Shown here piece after piece: positions 2,389-18,998 of a DNA stretch of 64,000 nucleotides. The DNA is from Escherichia coli (GTDB lineage: Bacteria > Pseudomonadota > Gammaproteobacteria > Enterobacterales > Enterobacteriaceae). The stretch is taken from the NCBI RefSeq assembly GCF_041886205.1, contig NZ_CP169029.1. One strand, 5' to 3'. The notes under the pieces are model-generated. The model was not told where the DNA came from. It was given only the letters and a program-made list of their open reading frames with translations, and made no database searches. The translations under genes and the position numbers were made by a program. Numbering within the stretch: the stretch's first letter is position 1; each line of letters opens with the position of its first letter.

Positions 2389-3816
2389 CTAGACGATCTC
2401 TTCCGCGTACTGCCAAAGCGCTTTTAACAGCGCCACTTTTTCTTTATCGTCGGCATACTGCTGCGCCAGCATCTGAATCTCTTCTGCATAGCCTTGTAAA
2501 AACTCGGGTGTGAATACCTGGCGGCGGTGCTCCAGCCAACGTTGCTGCTCGGCATAATCCAGCGTCCCCGGGAAGTTGCGCGCCCGATAATTGAACAACA
2601 GCTTTTCAATCCGTTTATCAACAAAAGTGATATCCAGTGCCGGTAAATTACGCGGCTCGGTTTCCAGCACAATTTTCATTGCTGCACGATCGGCGTCACT
2701 GAAAAAGCCGTTATAAAGCTGTGCATCCACGTTATCTGAAGGCGTAAACGGTTCGGCTTCCGCGAATATCGCCACCACTTTTTCGCGCACTTGCGGATTT
2801 TCACGCAGAATTTTCAGGTTATTGAGGCAATGCTGACGATTAATTCCCAGTCGGTCGGCATCTTCCGGGCGTAGCGTATTCGCCTGGGCCAGCACCGGAC
2901 ATTTATTGATATGCACCAGCTTAACCGGAACGGCGGCGTTATCGCCAAGATCGGTTTTTGCGGTATATAAACGCTCGCGCAATGTGTCGCTATCCAGTTC
3001 CAGTAATGGCGAAATGTCTCCTGCCAAATCCACCATAATTACGGCATTGCGATTTTCAGGATGCCACGCCAGCGGTGCCACCCAGCTGGTATTGCCGCGC
3101 CATGCCCCAAACATTCCGGAAACGTGCACCAGGGGTTTCATCTGCGGAACATCAATCAACGCCATCAGTTTGTGTTTATTACGATGGGTAAAGAGATATT
3201 CAAACAGGCGTGGCTGACGCGTTTTTACCAGTTTCGCCATCGCAATAGTGGCGTACACATCAGCCATCGCATCGTGGGCGTTGCTATGTTCAATTCCATT
3301 CGCTTTGGTTAAATGCTCAAGGCGAAAGCTCGGTAGACCGTCATCATTTTCAGGCCAGTTTATTCCTTCCGGGCGCAGGGCATAACAGGCACGCATAACA
3401 TCCAGTAAATCCCAGCGCGAGTTATCATGCTGCCAGCTCCAGGCGTAAGGATCGTAGAAATTACGATAAAAAACGTTGCGTGTGACTTCGTCGTCGAAAC
3501 GCACATTGTTGTAGCCCAGAATACAGGTCTTCGGTACGTTAAAAAGCGAGTGAATACGGGCGGCAAACGCGGCTTCGTTTTCTCCTTTCGCCCGTGCTTC
3601 CTGCGGGGTAATACCGGTAATTAATACTGCTCCAGGCTGGGGCAAATAGTCATCCGCGGGCTTGCAGTAAAAGACTTCGGGTTCGCCGATGACATTGAAT
3701 TCGTTATCAGTGCGAATGGCTGCGAACTGTGCAGGGCGATCTAACGCGGGGTGCGTTCCAAAGGTTTCGTAATCGTGAAACAAAAAGGTAGATTGTTGCT
3801 TACCGTCATTCATCAT
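2389..3816 (-). CDS. sbcB: Exodeoxyribonuclease I
   Basis: Protein from the internal ATG begins MMNDGKQQSTFLFHDYETFG (475 aa); the track ORF has a 16-codon GTG extension. Confidence 0.92.
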   Translation of the reverse strand: MMNDGKQQSTFLFHDYETFGTHPALDRPAQFAAIRTDNEFNVIGEPEVFYCKPADDYLPQPGAVLITGITPQEARAKGENEAAFAARIHSLFNVPKTCILGYNNVRFDDEVTRNVFYRNFYDPYAWSWQHDNSRWDLLDVMRACYALRPEGINWPENDDGLPSFRLEHLTKANGIEHSNAHDAMADVYATIAMAKLVKTRQPRLFEYLFTHRNKHKLMALIDVPQMKPLVHVSGMFGAWRGNTSWVAPLAWHPENRNAVIMVDLAGDISPLLELDSDTLRERLYTAKTDLGDNAAVPVKLVHINKCPVLAQANTLRPEDADRLGINRQHCLNNLKILRENPQVREKVVAIFAEAEPFTPSDNVDAQLYNGFFSDADRAAMKIVLETEPRNLPALDITFVDKRIEKLLFNYRARNFPGTLDYAEQQRWLEHRRQVFTPEFLQGYAEEIQMLAQQYADDKEKVALLKALWQYAEEIV

Positions 3817-4024
3817 TAGGTTAAATCCGTTATTTCTGCTGTCTGCCAGAGTATCAAATATCACCGTGCTAATCAGCTTTAGCGCGACAATTTGGCAGCG
3901 AGTGACAACAGATCATGTCAGATAAAAATGAGATAGTAGTCACATTTTCTTGCACTTTATTCCAGCCAGTTCATAAGTATTTCCGTAAAAAGAACAGCTA
4001 TTTGAAACACCTGAGGGTTTGCTG

Positions 4025-5191
4025 TTGAAACGCCGTCTTATTATTGCTGCTTCTTTGTTCGTTTTTAATTTATCGTCTGGTTTTGCGGCGGAAAACATTC
4101 CTTTTTCACCTCAGCCTCCAGAGATTCATGCCGGGTCCTGGGTATTGATGGATTACACCACCGGTCAGATTCTCACCGCGGGTAATGAGCATCAACAGCG
4201 CAATCCCGCCAGCCTGACAAAGCTGATGACGGGCTATGTCGTGGATCGCGCTATCGATAGTCATCGCATTACGCCAGACGATATTGTCACCGTGGGGCGT
4301 GATGCGTGGGCGAAAGATAATCCGGTGTTTGTCGGTTCTTCACTGATGTTTTTGAAAGAGGGCGATCGCGTATCGGTACGTGATTTAAGCCGAGGTTTAA
4401 TTGTGGATTCCGGAAATGACGCGTGTGTTGCTCTGGCTGACTATATTGCCGGTGGGCAACGGCAGTTTGTTGAAATGATGAACAACTATGCCGAGAAGCT
4501 GCATCTCAAGGATACGCATTTTGAAACAGTGCATGGTCTGGATGCACCTGGCCAGCATAGCTCGGCTTATGATTTAGCTGTGCTTTCTCGCGCTATCATC
4601 CACGGCGAGCCCGAGTTTTATCATATGTACAGTGAGAAAAGTCTCACCTGGAACGGTATCACCCAGCAAAACCGTAACGGATTATTGTGGGATAAAACCA
4701 TGAATGTTGACGGCCTGAAAACGGGTCATACTTCTGGTGCCGGGTTTAATCTCATTGCTTCGGCTGTAGATGGGCAGCATCGTCTCATTGCAGTGATAAT
4801 GGGGGCTGACAGTGCAAAAGGTCGTGAGGAAGAGGCAAGAAAATTACTGCGTTGGGGGCAACAAAACTTTACTACGGTGCAAATTTTGCACCGTGGGAAA
4901 AAGGTCGGAACGGAACGCATCTGGTATGGCGATAAAGAAAATATCGACCTGGGAACGGAACAAGAGTTCTGGATGGTGCTACCGAAAGCCGAAATTCCAC
5001 ATATCAAAGCCAAATATACCCTTGATGGTAAAGAGCTCACCGCGCCAATTAGCGCCCATCAGCGGGTAGGGGAAATTGAACTTTACGACCGTGATAAACA
5101 GGTGGCGCACTGGCCGCTGGTTACCCTGGAATCTGTCGGGGAAGGCAGCATGTTTTCTCGCCTGAGTGATTATTTCCACCATAAGGCCTGA
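4025..5191 (+). CDS. dacD: D-alanyl-D-alanine carboxypeptidase DacD (PBP6b)
   Basis: Signal peptide; SxxK, SGN and KTG motifs; probable TTG start giving 388 aa. Confidence 0.9.
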   Translation: MKRRLIIAASLFVFNLSSGFAAENIPFSPQPPEIHAGSWVLMDYTTGQILTAGNEHQQRNPASLTKLMTGYVVDRAIDSHRITPDDIVTVGRDAWAKDNPVFVGSSLMFLKEGDRVSVRDLSRGLIVDSGNDACVALADYIAGGQRQFVEMMNNYAEKLHLKDTHFETVHGLDAPGQHSSAYDLAVLSRAIIHGEPEFYHMYSEKSLTWNGITQQNRNGLLWDKTMNVDGLKTGHTSGAGFNLIASAVDGQHRLIAVIMGADSAKGREEEARKLLRWGQQNFTTVQILHRGKKVGTERIWYGDKENIDLGTEQEFWMVLPKAEIPHIKAKYTLDGKELTAPISAHQRVGEIELYDRDKQVAHWPLVTLESVGEGSMFSRLSDYFHHKA

Positions 5192-5274
5192 CCTTTCTTT
5201 GCAGCAGACTGGCAGGAGTGCGAGTCTGCTCGCATAATCAACACTCATTCCTTGTGGTTTTAATATTGCAACTA

Positions 5275-5294
5275 TACTGTATATAAAAACAGTA
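5275..5294 (+). promoter_or_regulatory. LexA box (SOS operator) upstream of sbmC
   Basis: TACTGTATATAAAAACAGTA, a perfect CTGT-N8-ACAG palindrome about 15 nt before the sbmC start. Confidence 0.8.
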
Positions 5295-5308
5295 TTAATG
5301 GAGGCGTC

Positions 5309-5782
5309 ATGAACTACGAGATTAAGCAGGAAGATAAACGTACCGTTGCAGGTTTCCATCTCGTTGGCCCGTGGGAGCAGACGGTAAAGAAAGGTTTTGA
5401 GCAGTTGATGATGTGGGTAGATAACAAAAATATTGTGCCGAAGGAGTGGGTTGCTGTCTATTACGACAATCCAGATGAAACACCCGCCGAAAAATTACGC
5501 TGCGACACCGTCGTGACGGTACCGAATAACTTTACGCTCCCCGAAAACAGTGAGGGCGTCATTCTGACAGAAATTTCAGGTGGTCAGTATGCGGTTGCGG
5601 TGGCTCGTGTAGTCGGTGATGATTTTGCTAAACCCTGGTATCAGTTCTTTAATAGCCTCTTGCAGGACAGTGCTTATGAAATGTTACCAAAGCCCTGCTT
5701 CGAGGTTTATTTGAACAATGGCGCGGAAGATGGGTACTGGGATATCGAAATGTATGTTGCGGTGCAGCCAAAACATCACTAA
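5309..5782 (+). CDS. sbmC: DNA gyrase inhibitor SbmC/GyrI
   Basis: 157 aa; preceded by GGAGG RBS and a LexA box. Confidence 0.9.
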
Positions 5783-5980
5783 TTCATCTCAGGGCGGTGT
5801 GTTAACGCGATGACCACTCTTTTTTTTGAAAGCGAAAAGAGTAAGATGCGCCTTTCAATTTTTTCGCTCCTGCCGGGAAATTACACTGTTCCCGGTTTGT
5901 CCGTCGGATAATTCAGAGGCGCGCCTTCTGGCCGACAGATGAGTTATGAGCGCTTTTAATCTTCATTACGGAGTTTCTGC

Positions 5981-7039
5981 GTGCGTGCCGATAAGTCATT
6001 AAGCCCGTTTGAAATCCGGGTATACCGCCATTACCGCATTGTGCATGGTACTCGGGTCGCGCTGGCATTCCTGCTCACTTTTCTCATTATCCGCCTGTTT
6101 ACTATCCCGGAAAGTACCTGGCCGCTGGTCACCATGGTGGTGATTATGGGGCCAATCTCGTTCTGGGGGAACGTTGTCCCTCGCGCATTCGAACGTATTG
6201 GCGGTACGGTGTTGGGGTCGATTTTAGGTCTTATCGCTCTGCAACTGGAGTTAATCTCGTTACCGCTGATGTTAGTCTGGTGCGCGGCGGCTATGTTTCT
6301 TTGCGGTTGGCTGGCGCTGGGCAAGAAACCGTATCAAGGTTTATTGATTGGGGTGACGCTGGCAATTGTTGTTGGTTCCCCGACAGGTGAAATTAATACG
6401 GCGTTATGGCGAAGCGGCGATGTGATCCTCGGCTCTTTACTGGCAATGTTGTTTACCGGTATCTGGCCACAACGGGCGTTCATCCACTGGCGCATTCAAC
6501 TGGCAAAAAGTCTGACCGAGTATAATCGGGTCTATCAATCTGCATTCTCACCGAACTTACTCGAACGCCCGCGTCTGGAAAGCCATCTACAAAAACTCCT
6601 GACCGATGCCGTGAAAATGCGTGGGCTGATTGCGCCCGCCAGCAAAGAAACCCGTATTCCAAAATCGATATATGAAGGTATCCAGACCATTAATCGCAAT
6701 CTGGTTTGTATGCTGGAGTTGCAAATCAATGCATACTGGGCCACGCGCCCCAGCCATTTCGTGTTATTGAACGCGCAAAAACTTCGTGATACCCAGCATA
6801 TGATGCAGCAAATACTGCTGAGCCTTGTTCATGCGCTGTACGAAGGTAATCCGCAGCCGGTTTTTGCCAATACGGAAAAATTGAACGATGCTGTGGAAGA
6901 GCTGCGTCAGTTGCTGAATAACCACCATGACCTGAAGGTTGTGGAAACACCAATCTATGGTTATGTGTGGCTGAACATGGAAACGGCACATCAGCTTGAG
7001 TTGCTATCGAATCTGATTTGCCGGGCCTTGCGCAAATAA
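5981..7039 (+). CDS. yeeA: Inner membrane protein YeeA (FUSC-like)
   Basis: 352-aa ORF with GTG start, hydrophobic N-terminal half; synteny. Confidence 0.85.
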   Translation: MRADKSLSPFEIRVYRHYRIVHGTRVALAFLLTFLIIRLFTIPESTWPLVTMVVIMGPISFWGNVVPRAFERIGGTVLGSILGLIALQLELISLPLMLVWCAAAMFLCGWLALGKKPYQGLLIGVTLAIVVGSPTGEINTALWRSGDVILGSLLAMLFTGIWPQRAFIHWRIQLAKSLTEYNRVYQSAFSPNLLERPRLESHLQKLLTDAVKMRGLIAPASKETRIPKSIYEGIQTINRNLVCMLELQINAYWATRPSHFVLLNAQKLRDTQHMMQQILLSLVHALYEGNPQPVFANTEKLNDAVEELRQLLNNHHDLKVVETPIYGYVWLNMETAHQLELLSNLICRALRK

Positions 7040-7210
7040 TTCCTGAACTTCAGAATCATCTTGCTGCTGCTTCGATTCAGCAAGGATAAAGGGTATGATA
7101 GTGAAAAGGGATAAAAGCATTGTCATCTGCGGCAGCTATGAGTAATGTTGGCCCTAACGAATAGCGGTTGCTTAAACGAATCCGACTCTCACATTATCAG
7201 GGGTATAAAA

Positions 7211-7540
7211 ATGGAAACTACCAAGCCTTCATTCCAGGACGTACTGGAATTTGTTCGTCTGTTCCGTCGTAAGAACAAACTGCAACGTGAAATTCAGGAC
7301 GTTGAGAAAAAGATCCGTGACAACCAGAAGCGCGTCCTGTTGCTGGACAACCTGAGCGATTACATCAAGCCAGGGATGAGCGTTGAAGCAATCCAGGGCA
7401 TCATCGCCAGCATGAAAGGTGACTATGAAGATCGCGTTGACGATTACATCATCAAAAATGCCGAGCTCTCCAAAGAACGCCGCGATATCTCCAAAAAGCT
7501 GAAAGCTATGGGCGAAATGAAAAACGGCGAAGCGAAGTAA
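7211..7540 (+). CDS. yeeX: DUF496 family protein YeeX
   Basis: 109 aa from internal ATG ([14 protein letters not shown]...); highly charged coiled-coil-like protein. Confidence 0.85.
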
Positions 7541-7640
7541 TTCCCGTTTTATTCAATGAGGGTTGCCCGGCAACCCTCATTGCTCATTGATTCTTATCTG
7601 TGTATCACCGTCATCATTCTCATCTGAGAACCAATCGAAA

Positions 7641-7860
7641 TTAACAACAGCCTTCTTCTGTATGCAGCAAGGCAAAAAGTTCTGTAACTCCATTGTTATT
7701 AACTGCACTGGTTACTAACACGTTGTGCGCTCCAGCTTCCCGTAACCAACTTTTCACCAAAGATATTTGTTCCATGCTGGCTAAATCTGCTTTGGTTACT
7801 ACTCCAATGACCGGGTGATTCATGGCCCGGTAGGGCGTTTTTACCTCTAATTCCTGCTTC
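7641..7860 (-). pseudogene. EutP/PduV-like GTPase C-terminal fragment (yoeF-like remnant)
   Basis: C-terminal about 70 aa (...VIGVVTKADLASMEQISLVKSWLREAGAHNVLVTSAVNNNGVTELF...) resembles the EutP/PduV family; no N-terminal domain; upstream part of the track ORF is antisense to the IS66 remnant. Confidence 0.5.
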
Positions 7861-7861
7861 A

Positions 7862-8053
7862 GCGCTGAGATTCCTGCTTGTTGCCGGAAAAGCAGGCACC
7901 TGCCGTCTGAACGGTATCGATCCGGAAGCGTATCTGCGCCATATTCTGAGCATACTGCCGGAATGGCCCTCCAACCGTGTTGACGAACTCCTGCCATGGA
8001 ACGTAGTTCTCACCAATAAATAAGCGTCAATACGGTGCTCCGTTGACGCTTAC
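7862..8053 (+). mobile_element. IS66-family transposase 3' remnant including the terminal repeat (yoeD-like)
   Basis: Translation ...GIDPEAYLRHILSILPEWPSNRVDELLPWNVVLTNK* matches IS66 TnpC C-termini; ends with ...CGTTGACGCTTAC, resembling the IS66 right inverted repeat. Confidence 0.6.
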
Positions 8054-8072
8054 TTTAATCCGTTTTCTGAGC

Positions 8073-8153
8073 TTAGATTTTTCTGTTCCTACCCAGACCG
8101 TGGATTTGGAATTCATTTTTTGTCAGGTCAATGCTAATCGTTAAAACGGCCAT
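8073..8153 (-). pseudogene. Short ORF with IS110-family-like transposase N-terminus, abutting the IS66 remnant
   Basis: GGAGG RBS then MAVLTISIDLTKNEFQIHG..., reminiscent of IS110/IS1111 transposase N-termini; only 26 codons. Recall-based, weak. Confidence 0.3.
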
Positions 8154-8437
8154 AACGCACCTCCACTGGAAGGTTTATCAGTAATATCCTACCGTTGCTT
8201 CATGGTCGGGGCGTCCATTCCATTATTATCGGTTTTCCTTTCTGTTTATAAATGAAAACGCCAGCTGTATTCAGGCTGGCGTCAGGGGAAATGAAGCCTG
8301 TTGAGTGAGATTCACCGGTTCTGGTGCAGAAGCTGCAGATGGCGCAGGGTAAGGACATCTTCTCTTGCCTGCTTAATACAGGACAACAGTGCTGTTTCTG
8401 TGGTTAATGGTACTATACCCTGCATCACTGCATTGTC

Positions 8438-8632
8438 TTACAGCAACTGGTGAGGGCTGGCATAAGTTGCCGGTGTTTCGGTAGAGTCACGGTCATCCAC
8501 CACGCGGAGTGAATAACCTTTTTCAGCGGCCTTATTAATCAGTTCAGTGATATTAACACCATCAATGTCAACGACAATGTGCCCCATATCCAGCGCCTGT
8601 ACGTTAACGCTGTCGGCTTCCAGTGTCATCAT
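8438..8632 (-). CDS. Hypothetical 64-aa protein in the prophage-remnant segment (possibly YeeW/YpjJ-like)
   Basis: ATG with GGAGG 4 nt upstream; acidic protein MMTLEADSVNVQALDMGHIVVDIDGVNITELINKAAEKGYSLRV...; sits where yeeW would be by synteny but I cannot confirm identity. Confidence 0.45.
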   Translation of the reverse strand: MMTLEADSVNVQALDMGHIVVDIDGVNITELINKAAEKGYSLRVVDDRDSTETPATYASPHQLL

Positions 8633-8756
8633 TTCGCCTCCGGATACTTACCCAGGGTAATGTTATTTACCGTTCTGTAATTGTCGCGGGTCATCAGGCC
8701 GGTCGCCCTGCGAGCCCGGAGGATATCGATGCTGTTTATTAACTGAGAGCGGGTAT

Positions 8757-9460
8757 GGGCGCTGCTTCGCAGACAGGCAGAACTTGATGGTATGCCTGCG
8801 ATCAATGCCAAACGTGTTTACCGGATCATGCGCCAGAATGCGCTGTTGCTTGAGCGAAAACCTGCTGTACCGCCATCGAAACGGGCACATACAGGCAGAG
8901 TGGCCGTGAAAGAAAGCAATCAGCGATGGTGCTCTGACGGGTTCGAGTTCTGCTGTGATAACGGAGAGAGACTGCGTGTCACGTTCGCGCTGGACTGCTG
9001 TGATCGTGAGGCACTGCACTGGGCGGTCACTACCGGCGGCTTCAACAGTGAAACAGTACAGGACGTCATGCTGGGAGCGGTGGAACGCCGCTTCGGCAAC
9101 GATCTTCCGTCGTCTCCAGTGGAGTGGCTGACGGATAATGGTTCATGCTACCGGGCTAATGAAACACGCCAGTTCGCCCGGATGTTGGGACTTGAACCGA
9201 AGAACACGGCGGTGCGGAGTCCGGAGAGTAACGGAATAGCAGAGAGCTTCGTGAAAACGATAAAGCGTGACTACATCAGTATCATGCCCAAACCAGACGG
9301 GTTAACGGCAGCAAAGAACCTTGCAGAGGCGTTCGAGCATTATAACGAATGGCATCCGCATAGTGCGCTGGGTTATCGCTCGCCACGGGAATATCTGCGG
9401 CAGCGGGCTTGTAATGGGTTAAGTGATAACAGATGTCTGGAAATATAGGGGCAAATCCAG
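8757..9460 (+). mobile_element. insD: IS2, 5'-truncated (insD C-terminal about 230 codons plus right terminal repeat)
   Basis: ORF 8792-9448 matches IS2 InsD (…[22 protein letters not shown]…SDNRCLEI); in-frame homology begins about 8757 after a stop; IS2 right end TGGATTTGCCCCTATATTTCCAGACATCTGTTATCACTTA present in reverse complement at 9421-9460. Confidence 0.85.
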
Positions 9461-9792
9461 CCACGAATGCGGATTTGTTTACGGCCTGCCAAGGAGTTGT
9501 CTGTTATCTCTACTCCGGGGATGTCCTGCAAATTATCGGCTATGGAGGCATTGGTGGAGTTCTGCAATGTTTGTTGGTCAATAACCTGTATAGTCGCCGG
9601 GCTTTCCCAAAGGTTGCTTGCCGAACGATTCGTGGTCACGACGAGCGTCTCTTCGTTGCTGATTTTTGTTTCTGAAGAAGTTGCGGTTGCAGTAGAAACT
9701 ATCCCAGAAATGCATAATGACAGAGTGGAAAGGATATAAATTCGACAAGGTATATTATATAACATTTCATCCCTCATTAATACAAAGTACAA
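9461..9792 (-). pseudogene. yoeA: TonB-dependent outer-membrane receptor N-terminal (plug) fragment interrupted by IS2 (yoeA-like)
   Basis: Minus-strand translation ...ETLVVTTNRSASNLWESPATIQVIDQQTLQNSTNASIADNLQDIPGVEITDNSLAGRKQIRIRG is a TonB-box/plug region; reading frame runs into the IS2 end. Confidence 0.7.
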
Positions 9793-9822
9793 ATGATTGC
9801 TGTAATGATAATTATTTTCATT
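9793..9822 (-). promoter_or_regulatory. Fur box at the promoter of the disrupted TonB-dependent receptor
   Basis: AATGATTGCTGTAATGATAATTATTTTCATT closely matches the Fur consensus GATAATGATAATCATTATC. Confidence 0.6.
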
Positions 9823-9971
9823 TATGTTCTCATATATCTATAATTATTGTCATCTTCATAAATTGTAAATATCAAACATTTTTGACCTTAATCATGTTTT
9901 TTGATAGATATTTTACGACTGAACATATCCGTCGTTTCCTCTGACTCGTGTCAGTCGGTCTCTGGTTGTAT

Positions 9972-10010
9972 CCACGGACCGCACTCTTGACATAAGAGTG
10001 CGGTCCGTGG
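9972..10010. repeat. Perfect 17-bp inverted repeat with 5-nt loop
   Basis: CCACGGACCGCACTCTT-gacat-AAGAGTGCGGTCCGTGG; no flanking T-run on either strand. Confidence 0.9.
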
Positions 10011-11436
10011 AAAACGGAGTTGAAAAAATGGTGTCTGAAAGAAGGTACCATCATTGTGATGACAAATACTTTGGCGTGGATAATGTAATTAATTGCTGAA
10101 ATTGACCGTATATGCGGTAAGACTCATATCAGTACCAGGTCCGGTTAATTGCTGATACTAATATAAACTTTTTACAAAAGGATGAATGCAGAAGGTTACT
10201 CTAATGGCCAGAGTGATGACAATGATGGTCAGACGTTGACCTGCAGAAACTGCATTTTAATTGGTCTATAAAGTCTGCAAGAGGAATCAGGGTCAGATCA
10301 GTGAGTCTTATCGCGGCCCGAAGCTATGACTGAAAGAAGGCTGGATACAGAATTGCAACAATTTGGCAATGTCAGAACACAGAAGCTTTGCAAGCAGGTG
10401 AAAGGTTATGTCTAGCAAAAGGAGTATATCAGAATATATCTACTGATGTACAAAACACAACAATAGCTTCATGATATATAAATACGTGATGACGAGTGGT
10501 ACTCCGCATGGTTATTTAACTTCTCAGCACCACTAATGATCCTGAGCAACTTCGTATTTGGGCCATTACCATGGAGTAGAAAGCTGTGTCTGAGAATGCA
10601 GAATTTGAGAAAAGAATTCGCTTTCTTGGAGAGCTTCTGAAAATGGCACGCTAACAACGTTTTGTTAAAAAATGTGAATCACTTGCCGGGGCTGCATTTT
10701 CTATTCGAGGAGAATGTTGACGTAGATATTACAGAAATCTCAGCGCATCAGGATAAACTGCTACCTTAGGTCAACCACCAAAAGAAAATACAATACGTCC
10801 AGTTTGTATGCCTTTAATAACACATCTTCTAAATGTTGAAGAATTATCCCGCCTGCTGAAGAACGTTGCTCTGAGTGTGATAAACCTTTTTATTCTTGAT
10901 GATGTCAGCGAGAAGATGGAATATATCCCCGACTGGGTCGTGGTTACCCGGTTAAACATCTGGTGGCGCTAATAAATCTGGCAAGTCACATTCTGTTGAA
11001 TGCTGTGACAGTGCCTTACCGAGAGAGCGAAATTGTGGTGTTCTAGTGCATAGTCGCCACCATTCCGGATAATTCTATTACGTTGTTTTACAAGTTCTTT
11101 TACAGCGCAGATCTGTCGCTGACGTTGAATCAATAGCCTGGATTTCAGAACACAATGCCCGTTTGCTGGTTGTTCCGGCAGTAGCATTAATTCATTATCT
11201 GAATGAAATGTGTCAATCCACAGAAACCGCTGTCAATGACGCATTTTGTCGGACGTTAACACGAGAAAGTCTGGCTATTCCGTAATGCCATCTTATTTCG
11301 TAATGGATTGAGAATGCTGGATTTTTAATTATATTACGCGCAGTATTAATCGCGTAAATGTTTTGCGGTCAGCAACGGTGGGGGATCCATTGTTCTGTTC
11401 AATGAATACCATCATACATTTGAATCAGGAGTCGGT

Positions 11437-11982
11437 ATGATGATTTTGGTGACGGGGGGCGCACGGAGCGGGAAGAGTCGCCACGCAGAGGCGCTTATTG
11501 GGGACTCTTCACAGGTTCTGTATATCGCTACCTCGCAAATCCTTGATGATGAGATGGCTGCACGGATAGAACATCATCGGCAAGGCCGCCCGGAGCACTG
11601 GCGCACAGTGGAGCGCTGGCAACATCTTGATGAATTAATTCATGCAGACATTAACCCGAATGAGGTTGTGTTGCTTGAATGCGTTACCACAATGGTGACT
11701 AATCTGTTGTTTGATTATGGCGGCGATAAAGACCCTGATGAATGGGATTATCAGGCGATGGAACAGGCGATTAATGCTGAGATTCAGTCGTTGATTGCTG
11801 CCTGCCAACGTTGCCCCGCAAAGGTTGTATTAGTGACTAACGAAGTGGGAATGGGGATTGTGCCGGAGAGTCGTCTGGCACGACATTTTCGTGATATTGC
11901 CGGGCGGGTAAATCAGCAGTTGGCCGCTGCGGCAAATGAAGTATGGCTGGTGGTTTCGGGTATTGGAGTAAAAATCAAATGA
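11437..11982 (+). CDS. cobU: Adenosylcobinamide kinase / adenosylcobinamide-phosphate guanylyltransferase
   Basis: 181 aa, P-loop GGARSGKS; first gene of cobUST; contains a Chi sequence GCTGGTGG. Confidence 0.92.
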
Positions 11983-12722
11983 GTAAATTATTTTGGGCGA
12001 TGCTCTCATTTATTACGCGTCTGCCTGTACCGCGTCGCTGGTCCCAGGGACTGGATTTCGAGCATTATTCTCGCGGTATTATTACTTTTCCTTTGATTGG
12101 ATTATTGCTTGGCGCGATTAGCGGGCTGGTCTTCATGGTGCTGCAGGCATGGTGTGGCGCACCACTGGCGGCACTGTTTAGCGTACTTGTGCTGGTGCTG
12201 ATGACCGGGGGATTCCATCTGGACGGCCTCGCTGATACCTGTGATGGCGTATTTTCTGCACGTAGCCGCGATCGCATGTTGGAAATCATGCGTGATAGCC
12301 GTTTAGGCACCCACGGCGGTCTGGCATTGATTTTTGTGGTACTGGCAAAGATTCTGGTGTTAAGCGAGTTGGCTCTGCGTGGCGAATCGATCCTTGCATC
12401 GCTGGCGGCAGCATGTGCGGTCAGCCGCGGGACTGCCGCATTATTGATGTATCGTCATCGTTATGCGCGGGAAGAAGGGCTTGGCAATGTGTTCATTGGC
12501 AAAATTGATGGGCGACAAACCTGCGTCACACTCGGCTTAGCCGCTATTTTTGCTGCCGTATTATTGCCGGGTATGCATGGTGTGGCTGCTATGGTGGTGA
12601 CGATGGTGGCGATTTTCATCCTCGGTCAGCTTCTCAAACGTACGCTGGGCGGGCAAACGGGCGATACGCTGGGAGCAGCCATAGAGCTTGGTGAACTGGT
12701 CTTCCTGCTGGCACTGCTATAA
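11979..12722 (+). CDS. cobS: Cobalamin-5'-phosphate synthase
   Basis: 247-aa membrane protein from ATG overlapping the cobU stop (ATGA). Confidence 0.9.
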
Positions 12723-12733
12723 AGAGACGTGAG

Positions 12734-13813
12734 ATGCAAATACTTGCCGATTTACTGAATACGATCCCAGCCATCGATTCTACCGCTATGTCGCGTGCAC
12801 AACGGCATATTGACGGGTTACTCAAACCTGTTGGTAGCCTGGGAAAGCTGGAGGTGCTTGCCATACAACTGGCAGGAATGCCGGGGTTGAATGGCATACC
12901 GCATGTGGGCAAAAAAGCGGTACTGGTTATGTGTGCCGATCACGGCGTCTGGGAGGAAGGGGTCGCTATTTCTCCAAAAGAAGTGACAGCCATACAGGCT
13001 GAAAATATGACCCGTGGAACAACCGGCGTGTGTGTGCTGGCAGAACAAGCGGGCGCTAACGTCCACGTAATTGATGTTGGTATTGATACTGCTGAGCCTA
13101 TCCCCGGGCTTATCAACATGCATGTCGCACGAGGTAGCGGCAATATTGCTTCAGCTCCGGCAATGAGTCGCCGTCAGGCTGAAAAGTTGCTTTTGGACGT
13201 CATATGTTATACGCAGGAGCTGGCAAAAAACGGTGTCACGCTGTTTGGTGTAGGTGAACTGGGGATGGCAAACACGACACCGGCAGCAGCAATAGTCAGC
13301 ACAATCACTGGCCGGAATCCTGAAGAAGTGGTTGGGATTGGCGCAAACCTGCCGACAGATAAACTGGCTAATAAAATTGATGTTGTGCGTCGGGCGATTA
13401 CGTTGAATCAACCAAATCCTCAGGATGGTGTTGATGTCCTGGCAAAAGTGGGTGGATTTGATTTGGTCGGAATAGCTGGAGTGATGTTAGGTGCTGCTTC
13501 CTGCGGTTTACCCGTGTTGCTGGATGGATTTCTTTCTTATGCTGCTGCGCTCGCAGCCTGCCAGATGTCTCCTGCGATCAAACCGTATCTCATTCCTTCT
13601 CACCTGTCGGCAGAAAAAGGCGCGCGTATAGCGCTCTCGCATTTGGGGCTGGAGCCTTATCTCAATATGGAGATGCGTTTAGGTGAGGGGAGTGGCGCAG
13701 CTCTGGCGATGCCCATCATCGAAGCTGCCTGTGCGATATACAACAACATGGGCGAACTTGCTGCCAGTAATATTGTTCTACCGGGGAATACGACTTCTGA
13801 TTTGAACAGTTAA
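12734..13813 (+). CDS. cobT: Nicotinate-nucleotide--dimethylbenzimidazole phosphoribosyltransferase
   Basis: 359 aa; completes cobUST. Confidence 0.92.
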
Positions 13814-13877
13814 AAACGAAAAGTCTGATAAAAGCTATACTTAACGGATAGCTTTCGCGGCATAGGAAAGGGACATG

Positions 13878-14810
13878 ATGCGTCGTGTAAATATTCTTTG
13901 CTCATTTGCTCTGCTTTTTGCCAGCCATACTAGCCTGGCGGTAACTTATCCATTACCTCCAGAGGGTAGCCGTTTAGTGGGGCAGTCGTTTACTGTAACT
14001 GTTCCTGATCACAATACCCAGCCGCTGGAGACTTTTGCCGCACAATACGGGCAAGGGTTAAGTAACATGCTGGAAGCGAACCCGGGCGCTGATGTTTTTT
14101 TGCCGAAGTCTGGCTCGCAACTCACCATTCCGCAGCAACTGATTTTGCCCGACACTGTTCGTAAAGGGATTGTTGTTAACGTCGCTGAGATGCGTCTTTA
14201 TTACTACCCACCAGACAGTAATACTGTGGAAGTCTTTCCTATTGGTATCGGCCAGGCTGGGCGAGAAACCCCGCGTAACTGGGTGACTACCGTTGAACGT
14301 AAACAAGAAGCTCCAACCTGGACGCCAACGCCGAACACTCGGCGCGAATATGCGAAACGAGGGGAGAGTTTGCCCGCATTTGTTCCTGCGGGCCCCGATA
14401 ATCCCATGGGGCTGTACGCGATTTATATTGGCAGGTTGTATGCCATCCATGGTACCAATGCCAATTTTGGTATTGGGCTCCGGGTAAGTCAGGGCTGTAT
14501 TCGTCTGCGCAATGACGATATCAAATATCTGTTTGATAATGTTCCTGTTGGGACGCGTGTGCAAATTATCGACCAGCCAGTAAAATACACCACTGAACCA
14601 GATGGCTCGAACTGGCTGGAAGTTCATGAGCCGTTGTCGCGCAATCGTGCAGAATATGAGTCTGACCGAAAAGTGCCATTGCCGGTAACCCCATCTTTGC
14701 GGGCGTTTATCAACGGGCAAGAAGTTGATGTAAATCGCGCAAATGCTGCGTTGCAACGTCGATCGGGAATGCCTGTGCAAATTAGTTCTGGTTCAAGACA
14801 GATGTTTTAA
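13878..14810 (+). CDS. ldtA: L,D-transpeptidase LdtA (ErfK)
   Basis: Signal peptide; YkuD domain with catalytic HGT...SQGCIRL motif. Confidence 0.9.
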
Positions 14811-14833
14811 GAGCGTTGGTAATTAGAAAGCAA

Positions 14834-14860
14834 AAAGCCTGCTAGAAAGCAGGCTTTTTT
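14834..14860 (+). terminator. Rho-independent terminator after ldtA
   Basis: AGCCTGCT-agaa-AGCAGGCT followed by TTTTTT. Confidence 0.75.
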
Positions 14861-14865
14861 GAATT

Positions 14866-14941
14866 TGGCTCCTCTGACTGGACTCGAACCAGTGACATAC
14901 GGATTAACAGTCCGCCGTTCTACCGACTGAACTACAGAGGA
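14866..14941 (-). tRNA. asnV: tRNA-Asn (GUU)
   Basis: Reverse complement equals TCCTCTGTAGTTCAGTCGGTAGAACGGCGGACTGTTAATCCGTATGTCACTGGTTCGAGTCCAGTCAGAGGAGCCA. Confidence 0.95.
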
Positions 14942-14959
14942 ATCGTGTGAACGGGGCGC

Positions 14960-14988
14960 ATATTAATGGCAGTGCATGGTGATGTCAA
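14960..14988 (-). promoter_or_regulatory. Sigma70 promoter of tRNA-Asn (TTGACA-17-TAATAT)
   Basis: Consensus -35 and near-consensus -10 about 18 nt upstream of the tRNA 5' end; GC-rich discriminator. Confidence 0.55.
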
Positions 14989-15196
14989 AGGGTGAAATGC
15001 ATTTTTTTGTTTGTTTGCTGTCAATTTCAACAAAGTGGTGAGCTTTCAATCTTATTGGGTAATGAACCATCGTGGTGCATACCCTCCTTTTATAGGGCAG
15101 GGGAACGCGACAGCTGATTAAAGGAGCAAATGACGAATCTATCATAATCTCTTATTTGACAGTTGGTTAGCTTGTACATCAACACCAAAATAAAAC

Positions 15197-15212
15197 TGGC
15201 AAGCATCTTGCA
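15197..15212 (+). promoter_or_regulatory. Sigma54 (-24/-12) promoter of nac
   Basis: TGGCAAGCATCTTGCA (GG-N10-GC) about 55 nt upstream of nac; NtrC-like element ACCATCGTGGTGCAT about 130 nt further upstream. Confidence 0.6.
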
Positions 15213-15267
15213 ATCTGGTTGTAAGTAATGGCGGCACTTGGGCCGATTCTTAAAAACCGGAGGCAAC

Positions 15268-16185
15268 ATGAACTTCAGACGCCTGAAATACTTCGTAAAA
15301 ATTGTAGATATTGGTAGCCTGACCCAGGCTGCTGAAGTATTGCATATCGCACAACCAGCGCTCAGCCAGCAGGTTGCCACACTGGAAGGTGAGTTAAATC
15401 AACAACTTTTGATCCGTACAAAGCGGGGCGTTACACCAACAGACGCCGGAAAAATTCTCTATACCCATGCGCGGGCCATTTTACGTCAGTGTGAACAGGC
15501 CCAACTGGCGGTGCATAACGTTGGTCAGGCATTATCGGGGCAAGTCTCGATTGGCTTTGCACCAGGAACCGCTGCGTCATCCATCACCATGCCCTTATTA
15601 CAGGCGGTTCGCGCTGAATTTCCGGAGATCGTTATCTATCTTCATGAAAATAGTGGTGCAGTGCTTAACGAAAAATTGATAAATCACCAACTCGATATGG
15701 CGGTGATTTATGAGCATTCCCCTGTGGCTGGTGTATCCAGTCAGGCTTTGCTGAAAGAAGATCTTTTTCTGGTAGGAACTCAAGATTGCCCGGGGCAAAG
15801 CGTTGATGTGAATGCTATTGCGCAAATGAACCTCTTTCTCCCCAGTGATTACAGTGCTATTAGACTTCGTGTTGATGAGGCTTTTTCCCTACGGCGACTC
15901 ACGGCAAAAGTTATTGGTGAAATTGAGTCTATTGCCACGCTTACCGCAGCGATTGCCAGCGGCATGGGCGTTGCAGTATTACCCGAATCGGCCGCGCGTT
16001 CGTTATGTGGCGCAGTAAATGGGTGGATGTCACGCATTACCACTCCTTCCATGAGTCTCTCTTTGTCATTAAATTTACCCGCCAGAGCGAACTTATCGCC
16101 ACAGGCACAGGCAGTGAAAGAGTTGTTAATGTCAGTGATTAGTTCTCCAGTGATGGAAAAAAGGCAGTGGCAATTGGTGAGCTAA
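15268..16185 (+). CDS. nac: Nitrogen assimilation control protein Nac (LysR family)
   Basis: 305 aa from MNFRRLKYFVKIVDIGSLTQAAEVLHIAQPALSQQV; sigma54 promoter upstream. Confidence 0.9.
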   Translation: MNFRRLKYFVKIVDIGSLTQAAEVLHIAQPALSQQVATLEGELNQQLLIRTKRGVTPTDAGKILYTHARAILRQCEQAQLAVHNVGQALSGQVSIGFAPGTAASSITMPLLQAVRAEFPEIVIYLHENSGAVLNEKLINHQLDMAVIYEHSPVAGVSSQALLKEDLFLVGTQDCPGQSVDVNAIAQMNLFLPSDYSAIRLRVDEAFSLRRLTAKVIGEIESIATLTAAIASGMGVAVLPESAARSLCGAVNGWMSRITTPSMSLSLSLNLPARANLSPQAQAVKELLMSVISSPVMEKRQWQLVS

Positions 16186-16286: not shown

Positions 16287-17237
16287 GTGAATTTCCAACA
16301 ACTAAAGATAATCCGCGAGGCTGCACGTCAGGATTACAACCTGACAGAGGTTGCGAATATGCTTTTTACCTCACAGTCAGGCGTCAGCCGTCATATTCGG
16401 GAACTGGAGGATGAACTTGGCATCGAAATATTTGTTCGACGAGGTAAGCGACTGCTGGGCATGACTGAACCGGGCAAAGCATTACTGGTCATTGCAGAAC
16501 GTATTCTGAATGAAGCCAGTAATGTTCGTCGGCTTGCAGACCTGTTTACCAACGATACGTCTGGCGTTCTCACTATTGCAACGACGCATACTCAGGCACG
16601 TTATAGCTTGCCAGAGGTCATTAAAGCTTTTCGCGAACTTTTCCCGGAGGTTCGGCTCGAGCTAATCCAGGGGACGCCACAGGAAATTGCGACATTGTTG
16701 CAAAATGGCGAAGCTGATATTGGTATCGCCAGCGAGCGTTTGAGTAATGACCCGCAGCTCGTCGCCTTCCCGTGGTTTCGTTGGCACCATAGTTTGCTTG
16801 TTCCACACGATCATCCCTTGACGCAAATTTCACCATTGACGCTGGAATCAATAGCGAAGTGGCCGTTAATCACTTACCGACAGGGGATTACGGGGCGCTC
16901 ACGTATTGATGACGCATTTGCCCGCAAAGGTTTGCTGGCAGATATTGTATTAAGTGCGCAGGATTCTGATGTCATTAAAACCTATGTTGCTCTTGGGCTT
17001 GGGATCGGATTAGTTGCCGAGCAATCCAGTGGCGAACAAGAGGAAGAGAATTTAATCCGCCTGGATACGCGGCATCTTTTTGATGCTAATACTGTCTGGT
17101 TGGGACTGAAGCGAGGACAACTTCAGCGTAACTATGTCTGGCGCTTTCTGGAACTTTGTAATGCAGGACTGTCAGTTGAGGATATCAAGCGGCAGGTGAT
17201 GGAAAGCAGTGAAGAGGGAATTGATTATCAGATATAG
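16287..17237 (+). CDS. cbl: LysR-family regulator Cbl (sulfonate utilisation)
   Basis: 316 aa LysR-type protein (MNFQQLKIIREAARQDYNLTEVANMLFTSQSGVSRHIRELE...) immediately after nac. Confidence 0.9.
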   Translation: MNFQQLKIIREAARQDYNLTEVANMLFTSQSGVSRHIRELEDELGIEIFVRRGKRLLGMTEPGKALLVIAERILNEASNVRRLADLFTNDTSGVLTIATTHTQARYSLPEVIKAFRELFPEVRLELIQGTPQEIATLLQNGEADIGIASERLSNDPQLVAFPWFRWHHSLLVPHDHPLTQISPLTLESIAKWPLITYRQGITGRSRIDDAFARKGLLADIVLSAQDSDVIKTYVALGLGIGLVAEQSSGEQEEENLIRLDTRHLFDANTVWLGLKRGQLQRNYVWRFLELCNAGLSVEDIKRQVMESSEEGIDYQI

Positions 17238-17242
17238 CAAAA

Positions 17243-17267
17243 ATCCCGCTATAAAAGCGGGCTTTTC
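17243..17267 (+). terminator. Rho-independent terminator after cbl
   Basis: CCCGCT-ataaa-AGCGGG followed by CTTTTC. Confidence 0.6.
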
Positions 17268-17274
17268 AGGAATT

Positions 17275-17350
17275 TGGCTCCTCTGACTGGACTCGAACCA
17301 GTGACATACGGATTAACAGTCCGCCGTTCTACCGACTGAACTACAGAGGA
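17275..17350 (-). tRNA. asnU: tRNA-Asn (GUU)
   Basis: Sequence identical to the other three tRNA-Asn copies. Confidence 0.95.
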
Positions 17351-17366
17351 ATCGTTGTTGAGGCAC

Positions 17367-17394
17367 ATCTTAACGGCGAAAAATCTTTTGTCAA
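17367..17394 (-). promoter_or_regulatory. Sigma70 promoter of tRNA-Asn (TTGACA-16-TAAGAT)
   Basis: Same architecture as the other asn promoters; lies inside the 5' extension of the yeeO track ORF. Confidence 0.5.
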
Positions 17395-17510
17395 ACCCGA
17401 TTTATAAATTCCCCTACTGTTTGCCGTTTCTATCAACAGTTTGTTGCATTTGCAGACAATTTGTTGGCGAAAATCTTTGCAGCTTTGCTGATTCTCCCTC
17501 ATTATTTGAA

Positions 17511-18998
17511 ATGTGGTTTCACTTTCTGCAATTAAGGTCGGCTTTGAATATCTCCTCTGCTTTACGCCAGGTTGTTCACGGCACTCGCTGGCACGCTAAA
17601 CGCAAGAGCTACAAAGTGTTGTTCTGGCGCGAGATAACCCCGCTTGCTGTTCCTATCTTCATGGAGAATGCCTGTGTCCTGTTGATGGGGGTTCTGAGCA
17701 CTTTTCTGGTCAGCTGGCTGGGAAAAGATGCGATGGCCGGCGTGGGATTGGCGGACAGCTTCAATATGGTCATTATGGCTTTTTTTGCTGCTATCGATCT
17801 TGGTACTACTGTCGTTGTGGCATTTAGTCTCGGTAAGCGGGATCGACGACGAGCGAGGGTGGCGACGCGGCAGTCATTGGTGATCATGACGTTGTTTGCC
17901 GTACTGTTGGCAACGCTTATTCATCATTTTGGCGAACAAATTATTGATTTCGTCGCGGGTGATGCCACGACAGAAGTTAAAGCACTGGCGTTGACTTATC
18001 TGGAGCTGACGGTACTCAGTTATCCAGCAGCTGCCATCACTCTTATTGGTAGCGGGGCACTTCGTGGTGCAGGGAATACGAAAATACCGCTATTGATTAA
18101 CGGTAGCCTGAATATTCTTAATATTATTATTAGCGGCATATTGATTTACGGCCTTTTCTCCTGGCCGGGACTGGAATTTGTCGGGGCAGGGCTGGGTTTA
18201 ACCATTTCTCGTTATATTGGCGCAGTTGCAATTTTGTGGGTGCTGGCGATTGGTTTTAATCCTGCGCTAAGGATTTCGTTAAAGAGCTATTTTAAACCGC
18301 TGAATTTTAGCATTATCTGGGAAGTCATGGGGATTGGTATTCCCGCGAGTGTCGAATCAGTGTTATTTACCAGTGGTCGGTTATTAACCCAAATGTTCGT
18401 TGCCGGGATGGGGACCAGTGTTATTGCCGGAAATTTTATCGCGTTTTCAATTGCGGCTCTTATCAACTTACCCGGAAGTGCGCTCGGCTCTGCTTCTACG
18501 ATCATTACAGGCCGAAGGTTGGGGGTAGGGCAGATAGCGCAAGCAGAGATTCAGTTGCGGCATGTGTTCTGGCTTTCCACTCTTGGATTAACGGCCATCG
18601 CCTGGCTAACGGCTCCCTTTGCCGGGGTTATGGCATCGTTTTACACCCAGGATCCACAGGTTAAACATGTCGTTGTGATTCTGATTTGGCTAAATGCTTT
18701 ATTTATGCCTATTTGGTCCGCCTCATGGGTGCTACCCGCTGGATTTAAAGGTGCTCGTGATGCCCGTTACGCCATGTGGGTTTCGATGTTGAGCATGTGG
18801 GGTTGTCGGGTTGTAGTCGGTTATGTGCTGGGAATCATGCTTGGCTGGGGTGTGGTTGGTGTCTGGATGGGAATGTTTGCCGACTGGGCTGTGCGGGCCG
18901 TGCTGTTTTACTGGCGAATGGTTACTGGACGTTGGCTATGGAAATACCCTCGACCCGAGCCGCAAAAGTGTGAAAAAAAGCCAGTTGTGTCGGAATAA
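17511..18998 (+). CDS. yeeO: MATE-family efflux transporter YeeO
   Basis: Track ORF is 547 aa; proposed start at internal ATG (MWFHFLQ...) gives about 495 aa and avoids the asnU promoter; 12-TMS MATE topology. Confidence 0.8.
   Translation: MWFHFLQLRSALNISSALRQVVHGTRWHAKRKSYKVLFWREITPLAVPIFMENACVLLMGVLSTFLVSWLGKDAMAGVGLADSFNMVIMAFFAAIDLGTTVVVAFSLGKRDRRRARVATRQSLVIMTLFAVLLATLIHHFGEQIIDFVAGDATTEVKALALTYLELTVLSYPAAAITLIGSGALRGAGNTKIPLLINGSLNILNIIISGILIYGLFSWPGLEFVGAGLGLTISRYIGAVAILWVLAIGFNPALRISLKSYFKPLNFSIIWEVMGIGIPASVESVLFTSGRLLTQMFVAGMGTSVIAGNFIAFSIAALINLPGSALGSASTIITGRRLGVGQIAQAEIQLRHVFWLSTLGLTAIAWLTAPFAGVMASFYTQDPQVKHVVVILIWLNALFMPIWSASWVLPAGFKGARDARYAMWVSMLSMWGCRVVVGYVLGIMLGWGVVGVWMGMFADWAVRAVLFYWRMVTGRWLWKYPRPEPQKCEKKPVVSE

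Follow-up and report, generated by a model that had tools for sequence, protein, structure and literature searches.

A probable single-deletion remnant of cryptic prophage CP4-44 in Escherichia coli, with an apparently recurrent deletion endpoint in the toxin gene cbtA

What became of the cryptic prophage CP4-44 in an Escherichia coli strain in which only 3.9 kb separate the end of tmaR (yeeX; position 7540) from the start of cobU (11437)? The interval lies in a 64,000-nt stretch of contig NZ_CP169029.1 (assembly GCF_041886205.1), hereafter the window. A first-pass annotation of the letters alone had measured that distance correctly and had recognized the place as the one that CP4-44 occupies in K-12, a placement with which our pairwise alignments agree, and it had described the content as a graveyard of unrelated mobile-element fragments, a description that we replace here. 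Judged by its colinearity with K-12, the locus is best read as the eroded right end of CP4-44 itself, a derivative formed by a single deletion and not debris lying in the prophage's place. We put at roughly nine in ten the probability that this residue of CP4-44 arose through one deletion between cbtA and the insD gene of insertion sequence (IS) 2, at a short repeat, with a cbtA endpoint that was probably non-random.

The remnant and its relation to K-12 CP4-44

A megablast search with window positions 7540-11440 against 5,426 complete E. coli genomes returned no one-piece colinear copy of the arrangement. Those nearest by coverage were strain D2 (95%), the E. coli B strains (92%) and TOK-001 (100%, with extra DNA inside), and the annotations of these genomes and of K-12 MG1655 supply a name for every piece. 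Pairwise BLAST against the reverse complement of K-12 (K12rc) gave three colinear segments: window 7000-8764 with K12rc 3429-5193 (99.4%), 8750-11046 with K12rc 13351-15647 (99.9%) and 11043-12000 with K12rc 16843-17800 (100%). Only two differences separate the interval from CP4-44 of K-12 MG1655 (NC_000913.3 2,066,020-2,078,748): an internal block of 8,172 bp, running from inside insD to inside cbtA, is gone (NC_000913.3 2,069,645-2,077,816, equivalent to K12rc 5185-13356), and IS5H is absent. According to the K-12 annotation the loss begins with the first 83 codons of cbtA, goes on through cbeA, yeeT, yeeS, yeeR, flu, isrC, yeeP and yoeA fragment 2, and ends with the left 626 bp of IS2F, which comprise the left inverted repeat (IRL), insC and the 5' part of insD.

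Is what is left enough to be called CP4-44? The site between tmaR/yeeX and cobU is the same, both ends are colinear with K-12 (the right end at 99.4%, the left at 99.9-100%), and the order yeeH, yoeG, yoeH, yoeA::IS2F ... yeeW, yoeD, yoeF is preserved, all of these being assigned to CP4-44 by the K-12 annotation. Because flu, yeeP, yeeR, yeeS, yeeT, cbeA and full-length cbtA all fall within the deleted block, the locus is a remnant and not a complete CP4-44. The first-pass statement that no cargo is left is not supported: flu, cbeA and yeeP are missing, but a DUF957 gene fragment, yeeW and the 3' end of cbtA remain. An intermediate state can be seen in TOK-001, where the same flanks enclose a frameshifted cbtA, cbeA, yeeT, a yeeS stub, yoeA fragment 2 and a complete IS2; the window is 2,268 bp shorter than that state.

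The two ends of the deletion meet at 8750-8764. Here cbtA reads ...GAGAG CGGGTA CA GGCGCTG AATCC... (CGGGTACAGGCGCTG) and insD of IS2F reads ...ATCGT CGGGTA TG GGCGCTG CTTCG..., a match of 13 out of 15 positions in the same orientation. The window reads CGGGTA TG GGCGCTG, and since its two central bases are the IS2 version, the exchange falls within the exact 6 nt CGGGTA at 8750-8755. Colinearity, breakpoints and microhomology are all directly visible. A 120-nt probe across the joint found it in none of the 5,426 complete genomes, and it constitutes a private marker of this strain. The closest sequenced arrangement, that of E. coli D2 (NZ_CP010137.1), has the identical cbtA endpoint and flanks of 99.94-99.97% identity, but its joint enters IS2 203 bp deeper (TA^ACGGAGAG, IS2 position ~831) and occurs in D2 only among the genomes searched.

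What sequence of events may have led to this joint? The ancestor would have had the K-12-type arrangement, or one already shortened to the TOK-001 type, and its internal block would have been lost by RecA-independent joining at the short imperfect repeat shared by cbtA and insD. A DNA end finishing ...CGGGTA-3' would arise repeatedly in cbtA and be joined wherever microhomology of 2-6 nt was offered, and the near-identical 15-mer of IS2 would have been the best partner on offer. We infer both the direction of the change, a deletion and not an insertion, and the mode of joining. The toxin gene is left as a dead stub and IS2 as an immobile element with one end, and the strain lacks Ag43 (flu) and the CbtA/CbeA module at the CP4-44 site.

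The pieces of the interval, from left to right, are as follows.

7211-7540, plus strand: tmaR (yeeX), left chromosomal flank; annotated tmaR/DUF496 and colinear in D2, TOK-001, BL21 and K-12
7554-7582, no strand: perfect 14-bp inverted repeat past tmaR, a terminator-like hairpin (100% complementary, 1-nt loop; repeat search)
7641-7823, minus strand: yoeF, C-terminal 60 codons of an EutP/PduV-family GTPase (NCBIfam TIGR02528 positions 87-141 of 142, E=4.9e-11)
7886-8053, plus strand: yoeD, final 45 codons of a transposase of the IS66 family (7886-8023) and the right end of the element (Pfam DDE_Tnp_IS66_C, PF13817, E=6.1e-16)
8054-8311, minus strand: 5' end of an IS110-family transposase gene (26-codon open reading frame, ORF, 8073-8153) with its upstream leader, assigned by colinearity with ST540
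8312-8404, minus strand: C-terminal 30 codons of a DUF957 gene; annotated DUF957 pseudogene and colinear in D2, TOK-001 and BL21
8438-8632, minus strand: yeeW (DUF5983), intact, 64 codons (Pfam DUF5983_N, E=8.9e-29; yeeW in the K-12 and D2 annotations)
8629-8755, minus strand: cbtA 3' remnant, codons 84-124 and stop; colinear with K-12 cbtA (Pfam CbtA_toxin 81-112 of 112, E=7e-9)
8750-8764, no strand: deletion joint, 15-nt stretch CGGGTATGGGCGCTG, located by three-way base-level comparison
8756-9460, plus strand: right part of IS2, insD codons 70-301 and right inverted repeat (NCBIfam PRK09409, IS2 TnpB, residues 70-301 of 301, E=1e-167)
9461-9765, minus strand: yoeA fragment 1, N-terminal plug of a TonB-dependent receptor (NCBIfam TonB-receptor N-terminal matches, E=6e-12)
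9766-11436, no strand: left end of CP4-44 as in K-12, with remnants of the pseudogenes yoeH, yoeG and yeeH; apart from the missing 1.2-kb IS5H, colinear with K-12 at 99.9-100%, and with pseudogene annotation in D2
~10945-11133: IS4-family fragment, inside the CP4-44 left end
11043-11046: empty IS5H target CTAG, where K-12 carries IS5H
~11142-11285: cobalamin-gene fragment, inside the CP4-44 left end
11437-11982, plus strand: cobU, right chromosomal flank; annotated cobU in all relatives examined

Profile matches and annotations uphold every element that the first-pass annotation had listed (EutP/PduV fragment, IS66 end, 26-codon IS110-like ORF, 64-amino-acid ORF, IS2 and TonB receptor) at approximately the positions it gave; it had no means of seeing that the 64-amino-acid ORF is yeeW and that 8629-8755 is the 3' end of cbtA. 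Its breakpoints at about 8053, 8757 and 9460 were right to within a few bases, with IS2 homology starting at 8750-8756, and the base-level joint bears out its proposal that IS2 was cut internally, inside insD, by a secondary deletion. It had also allowed that it misjudged the truncations if 8054-8756 proved to be native sequence and the IS2 and IS66 pieces full length; 8054-8755 is indeed contiguous native CP4-44 (99.4% to K-12), and IS2 and IS66 are still truncated.

The remnant of cbtA is the last 126 nt of the gene, and its CbtA_toxin match lies on a chimeric ORF at 8629-8811; neither the full 124-residue toxin nor its partner cbeA is present, only residues 84-124 remaining and cbeA being deleted. 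The right part of IS2 is 99.9% identical to K-12 IS2F over IS2 positions 622-1331 and retains the insD catalytic region, in frame from 8750 to a stop at 9448, and the right inverted repeat, which closes at 9460. IS2 positions 1-621, with IRL, insC, the frameshift region and the first 69 insD codons, are missing, and we predict this IS2 to be a non-autonomous, one-ended fragment. The 5-bp target duplication GCCAC, which in K-12 flanks both ends of IS2, survives only as its right copy (9461-9465). IS2 interrupts yoeA exactly as in yoeA::IS2F of K-12; an uninterrupted yoeA is found in another of the loci compared (L027).

In ST540 homology with the window halts at 7894 and restarts at 8054, with no IS66 piece there. 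The IS66 right end, whose terminus at 8053 would be the IS66-type GTAAGCG, is nested in the 5' part of the IS110-family gene; in ST540 its place is taken by ~1.3 kb made up of the 5' part of the EutP-like gene and the bulk of the IS110 gene. An IS66 element with tnpA, tnpB, the remainder of tnpC and both terminal repeats was not found, just ~160 bp (7895-8053) being left; the TnpC C-terminal domain is recognized by Pfam, and the NCBIfam match is weak (E=0.05). Of the IS110 DEDD transposase gene, cut by the IS66 end at 8053/8054, 26 codons are left; NCBIfam gave no match for the 26-residue peptide alone, and the assignment comes from colinearity with the frameshifted, near full-length gene of ST540 (locus L012, 919-1947). 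The D2 and K-12 annotations agree on yoeF, which in ST540 has a longer form of 121 residues; a complete P-loop domain of an EutP/PduV GTPase is not present in the window. The EutP, IS66, IS110 and yoeA::IS2 features, all common to K-12, are old and not local events. With the CTAG at 11043-11046 unoccupied, the IS5H insertion is specific to K-12 relative to the window strain.

The tmaR flank matches that of D2, TOK-001 and BL21 at 99.9% identity and that of K-12 at 99.4%. An imperfect inverted repeat of ~41 nt, 90% self-complementary by BLAST, lies in the gap between the yoeA and yoeH remnants (9971-10011) and occurs in K-12 as well. Rfam found no known RNA family in window 7000-12000. Further right, around yeeJ or neighboring genes, ~11% of window 12000-36000 is missing from K-12-like genomes that align with the rest at 99.9%.

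Recurrence of the cbtA endpoint

Is the cbtA endpoint peculiar to this strain and D2? Six other strains, ET729, ZF34, E3, ST540, DLI.5a and ARS-C301, all retain cbtA to exactly ...GAGAGCGGGTA and then diverge into different DNA: the interior of an IS110 gene in ET729, a DMT transporter gene 34 kb distant in ZF34, the interior of IS66 tnpC in E3 (where the cbtA copy is a different paralogue, 88% identical, in the tRNA-Phe island), sequence upstream of an Hha-family gene in ST540, a zinc-ribbon gene in DLI.5a and cbeA, at a distance of 400 bp, in ARS-C301, which thereby has a cbeA-cbtA fusion. PSJ-16 retains the opposite side of cbtA, together with cbeA, from the same TA. Pattern scans that needed only a non-native base past the TA added three more joint types in metagenome contigs, one of which was encountered again in a scan of GTDB genomes; one metagenome joint type is also present in 20 complete genomes, in the pitB/yghD island. 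A check of the DNA bore out two more joint types, one of them in a lineage whose yoeA is without IS2. Pattern scans of IMG/VR found no joint. In complete genomes and contigs together, 15 joint types were verified at DNA level, of which 14 keep the 3' side of cbtA and that of PSJ-16 the other, and the islands concerned are those at yeeX, tRNA-Phe and pitB/yghD.

Wherever the native partner was recovered it carries RTA at the joint. The microhomology between partner and cbtA ranges from 2 to 6 nt, and in five of the ten joints with a known native partner at least 4 nt are shared with the GGGTA of cbtA (P ~2e-4).

The early searches were able to detect joints at the hot-spot TA only. A position-blind census was obtained by protein search with CbtA residues 76-124, as gene callers render cbtA stubs as chimeric ORFs, and yielded 116 short proteins. 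Among the true chimeras in this set, 43 distinct contexts adjoin residue T84 (~38 without frameshift variants and near-duplicates) and about a dozen have another starting point, three of them at I94 and one or two at T75. Codons 60-100 hold six TA steps only, and the excess at one of them has P ~1e-19. Over a stretch of 120 nt, one dinucleotide accounts for some three quarters of the independent joints. In all, some 40 different joints, in at least three chromosomal islands, retain cbtA to exactly this TA. Residue 83 of the census chimeras is always NNT-encodable, as would be expected if the T of the TA were always kept. This leads us to the conclusion that cbtA-family genes share a recurrent, base-precise deletion endpoint which is probably not a random choice.

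Several observations were made beside these joints. The minor cbtA sites also fall on TA steps in G-rich context, GGATA^TC at I94 (P0093, P0094, P0096) and CGGTA^C at T75 (P0015), and two of the proteins, P0015 and P0094, have the same partner end (...AETTLT) at two different cbtA positions; that partner may itself have a fixed end. Of 17 cbtA copies on plasmids, 15 are intact and the remaining 2 are cut elsewhere than at the hot-spot TA. NEB Turbo, a K-12 laboratory derivative (NZ_CP053605.1; locus L024, ~1624-1911), has a 144-bp in-frame tandem duplication inside cbtA with a boundary 2-4 nt right of the hot-spot TA, near the site and not at it. A group II intron reverse transcriptase gene (RVT_N, RVT_1, GIIM, HNH) lies ~1.8 kb from the cbtA joint in locus L026 (1-1177), and it is probably unrelated to the joint because locus L025, which has the same joint, has none.

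Does the matching site in IS2 break repeatedly as well? The internal point CGGG^TATGGGCGCTG (window 8750-8764, IS2 positions 622-636) is a breakpoint in four independent contexts. Comparison of BL21(DE3) with REL606 reveals a 1,344-bp deletion which, like that of the window, cuts the IS2 in yoeA at this point (CGG^TATGGGCGCTG) and which arose within the E. coli B laboratory lineage; its left partner, however, is a zinc-ribbon gene and not cbtA, and the joint is without TA microhomology. In ST540 the IS2 point is joined to the interior of IS1, and in PSJ-16 the left side of IS2 is kept and joined to yeeT at exactly the TA that serves another cbtA joint. No IS2 cut at the hot-spot site was found when GTDB representative genomes were scanned, and in a census of InsD chimeras nearly all of the 120 best-scoring proteins listed were full-length copies. 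The evidence for the IS2 site as a breakpoint is thin.

Possible causes and alternatives

A major question arising from these observations is what would make a single dinucleotide serve as an endpoint so often. The joints have in common one fixed end, many partners, short microhomology, the use of either side, several loci and at least one recent event. From this pattern we infer a repeated DNA end at the TA, be it a nick, a break or an arrest of DNA synthesis, that is then joined by microhomology. The retention of the TA on both products, seen in few cases, is compatible with a 2-nt 3'-staggered break. The recurrence of the cbtA endpoint and the like behavior of the IS2 15-mer would imply a specific DNA lesion or arrest at the sequence. 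We would lay even odds that CGGG^TA, in its best form CGGGTA-YR-GGCGCTG, is a sequence-directed fragile point whose recurrent end is joined nearby through 2-6 nt of microhomology and which prunes CbtA-type toxin genes and IS2 copies.

Several points weigh against these proposals. We found no enzyme, pause site or structure that explains the hot spot, and the predicted DNA folding at the site does not differ from that of shuffled sequence (z = -0.45 and -0.49), for which reason secondary structure was set aside. Chance alone would supply about one 13/15 match between cbtA and IS2, so that the window joint in isolation needs no special mechanism. The ancestor is a reconstruction, as no sequenced genome differs from the window by the cbtA-insD deletion alone. 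Finally, D2 shares the cbtA endpoint but has 203 bp less of IS2, and either order of events, or independent origins, is possible.

Other candidates were considered and rejected. A partner-site motif, TA^ACGRAR, came from hits ranked by their reach into the D2 joint and is lacking in independently found joints; we judged it to be mostly ascertainment bias. A site-specific element of the IS110/bridge-RNA type does not fit, the target of ISSfl8, GATAAGATGAAA^CCCCCAC, being unlike the hot-spot motif and the IS110 remnant of the window being a different element. That target is occupied in ML35 (locus L022, 2220-3576), in which an intact IS110-family ISSfl8 lies in a DUF4942 gene, and uninterrupted in E3; ISSfl8 may target this island gene specifically. 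The cbtA end is not convincing as the terminus of a mobile unit, with no matching inverted repeat and with ordinary chromosomal genes past the commonest joint, and dispersed copies of the 15-mer were dismissed on its single copy in the window. Inspection by eye for similarity to restriction-type, gyrase, topoisomerase I, Chi, integron secondary-site, IS200/IS605-like and IS2-end sequences gave nothing convincing.

Could the deletion be the work of the IS2 transposase, through an adjacent deletion or with the internal TGGGCGCTG... serving as a cryptic left end? The retained part of IS2 begins with TG, as the ends of IS3-family elements do, and the same internal point is broken in BL21, ST540 and PSJ-16. 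A true IS-mediated adjacent deletion, however, spares the whole IS, whereas here the left end is gone, and the right flank (yoeA, GCCAC) is unchanged, which argues that there was no re-insertion of IS2. Moreover, the cbtA site, which has no TG, is broken even in a lineage whose yoeA is free of IS2, the microhomology at the joint is not expected of strand transfer by a transposase, and by eye the internal site bears only a weak similarity to the IS2 inverted repeats. We consider this explanation unlikely.

Alternatively, did selection or sampling create the appearance of a shared endpoint? Loss of cbeA beside an intact cbtA should be harmful, so that endpoints which disable cbtA would be favored, and the first searches could only find the one position. 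Yet selection is unable to tell the hot-spot TA from neighboring positions, PSJ-16 keeps the opposite side of cbtA and cbeA from the same TA, the 400-bp cbeA-cbtA fusion uses it too, and the census, blind to position, still placed about three quarters of the joints at one base. Selection against orphan toxin genes explains why endpoints lie in cbtA and not why they are precise to one base, and as an account of the shared endpoint selection or sampling is distinctly improbable.

The view that CP4-44 is absent and that unrelated mobile-element fragments filled the interval independently could appeal to the four IS families represented (IS66, IS110, IS2 and, further right, IS4), but it is already refuted by colinearity with K-12 at 99.4-100% save for one deletion and IS5H, by the presence of yeeW and the cbtA 3' end and by the identity of the IS66, IS110, EutP and yoeA::IS2 pieces in K-12, and we regard it as very improbable indeed. 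An assembly mis-join between repeats is barely credible, for although cbtA-family genes and IS2 are repeats present in several copies, many finished genomes are colinear with the flanks, and different laboratories obtained joints of the same kind in genomes finished independently, the BL21-type joint in dozens of B-strain assemblies.

The locus in itself, as one more decay state of a well-known cryptic prophage, matters little. A single deletion from CP4-44 with a probably non-random cbtA endpoint, the reading that we prefer, bears on a wider matter: deletion endpoints in bacteria are usually treated as IS-driven, homology-driven or random, and our literature searches found no published account of a cbtA hot spot. 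If the fragile-point proposal is true, it would amount to a previously undescribed, base-precise pruning engine that has acted in several islands and recently enough to have marked the BL21 laboratory lineage. As K-12 holds both 15-mers, 8.2 kb apart and in direct orientation, the process is directly testable.

Are there known systems that behave in this way? Bierne, Ehrlich and Michel reportedly described (EMBO J 1991) deletion hot spots at the replication-arrest site terB. Hot spots of the terB type differ from that of cbtA, for which neither a Ter site nor a Tus-like binding site nor any further arrest signal is known or was detected. What cbtA has in common with them, and with the RecA-independent short-homology deletion or alternative end-joining of E. 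coli, is a fixed endpoint that is united with many partners by a homology of a few bases.

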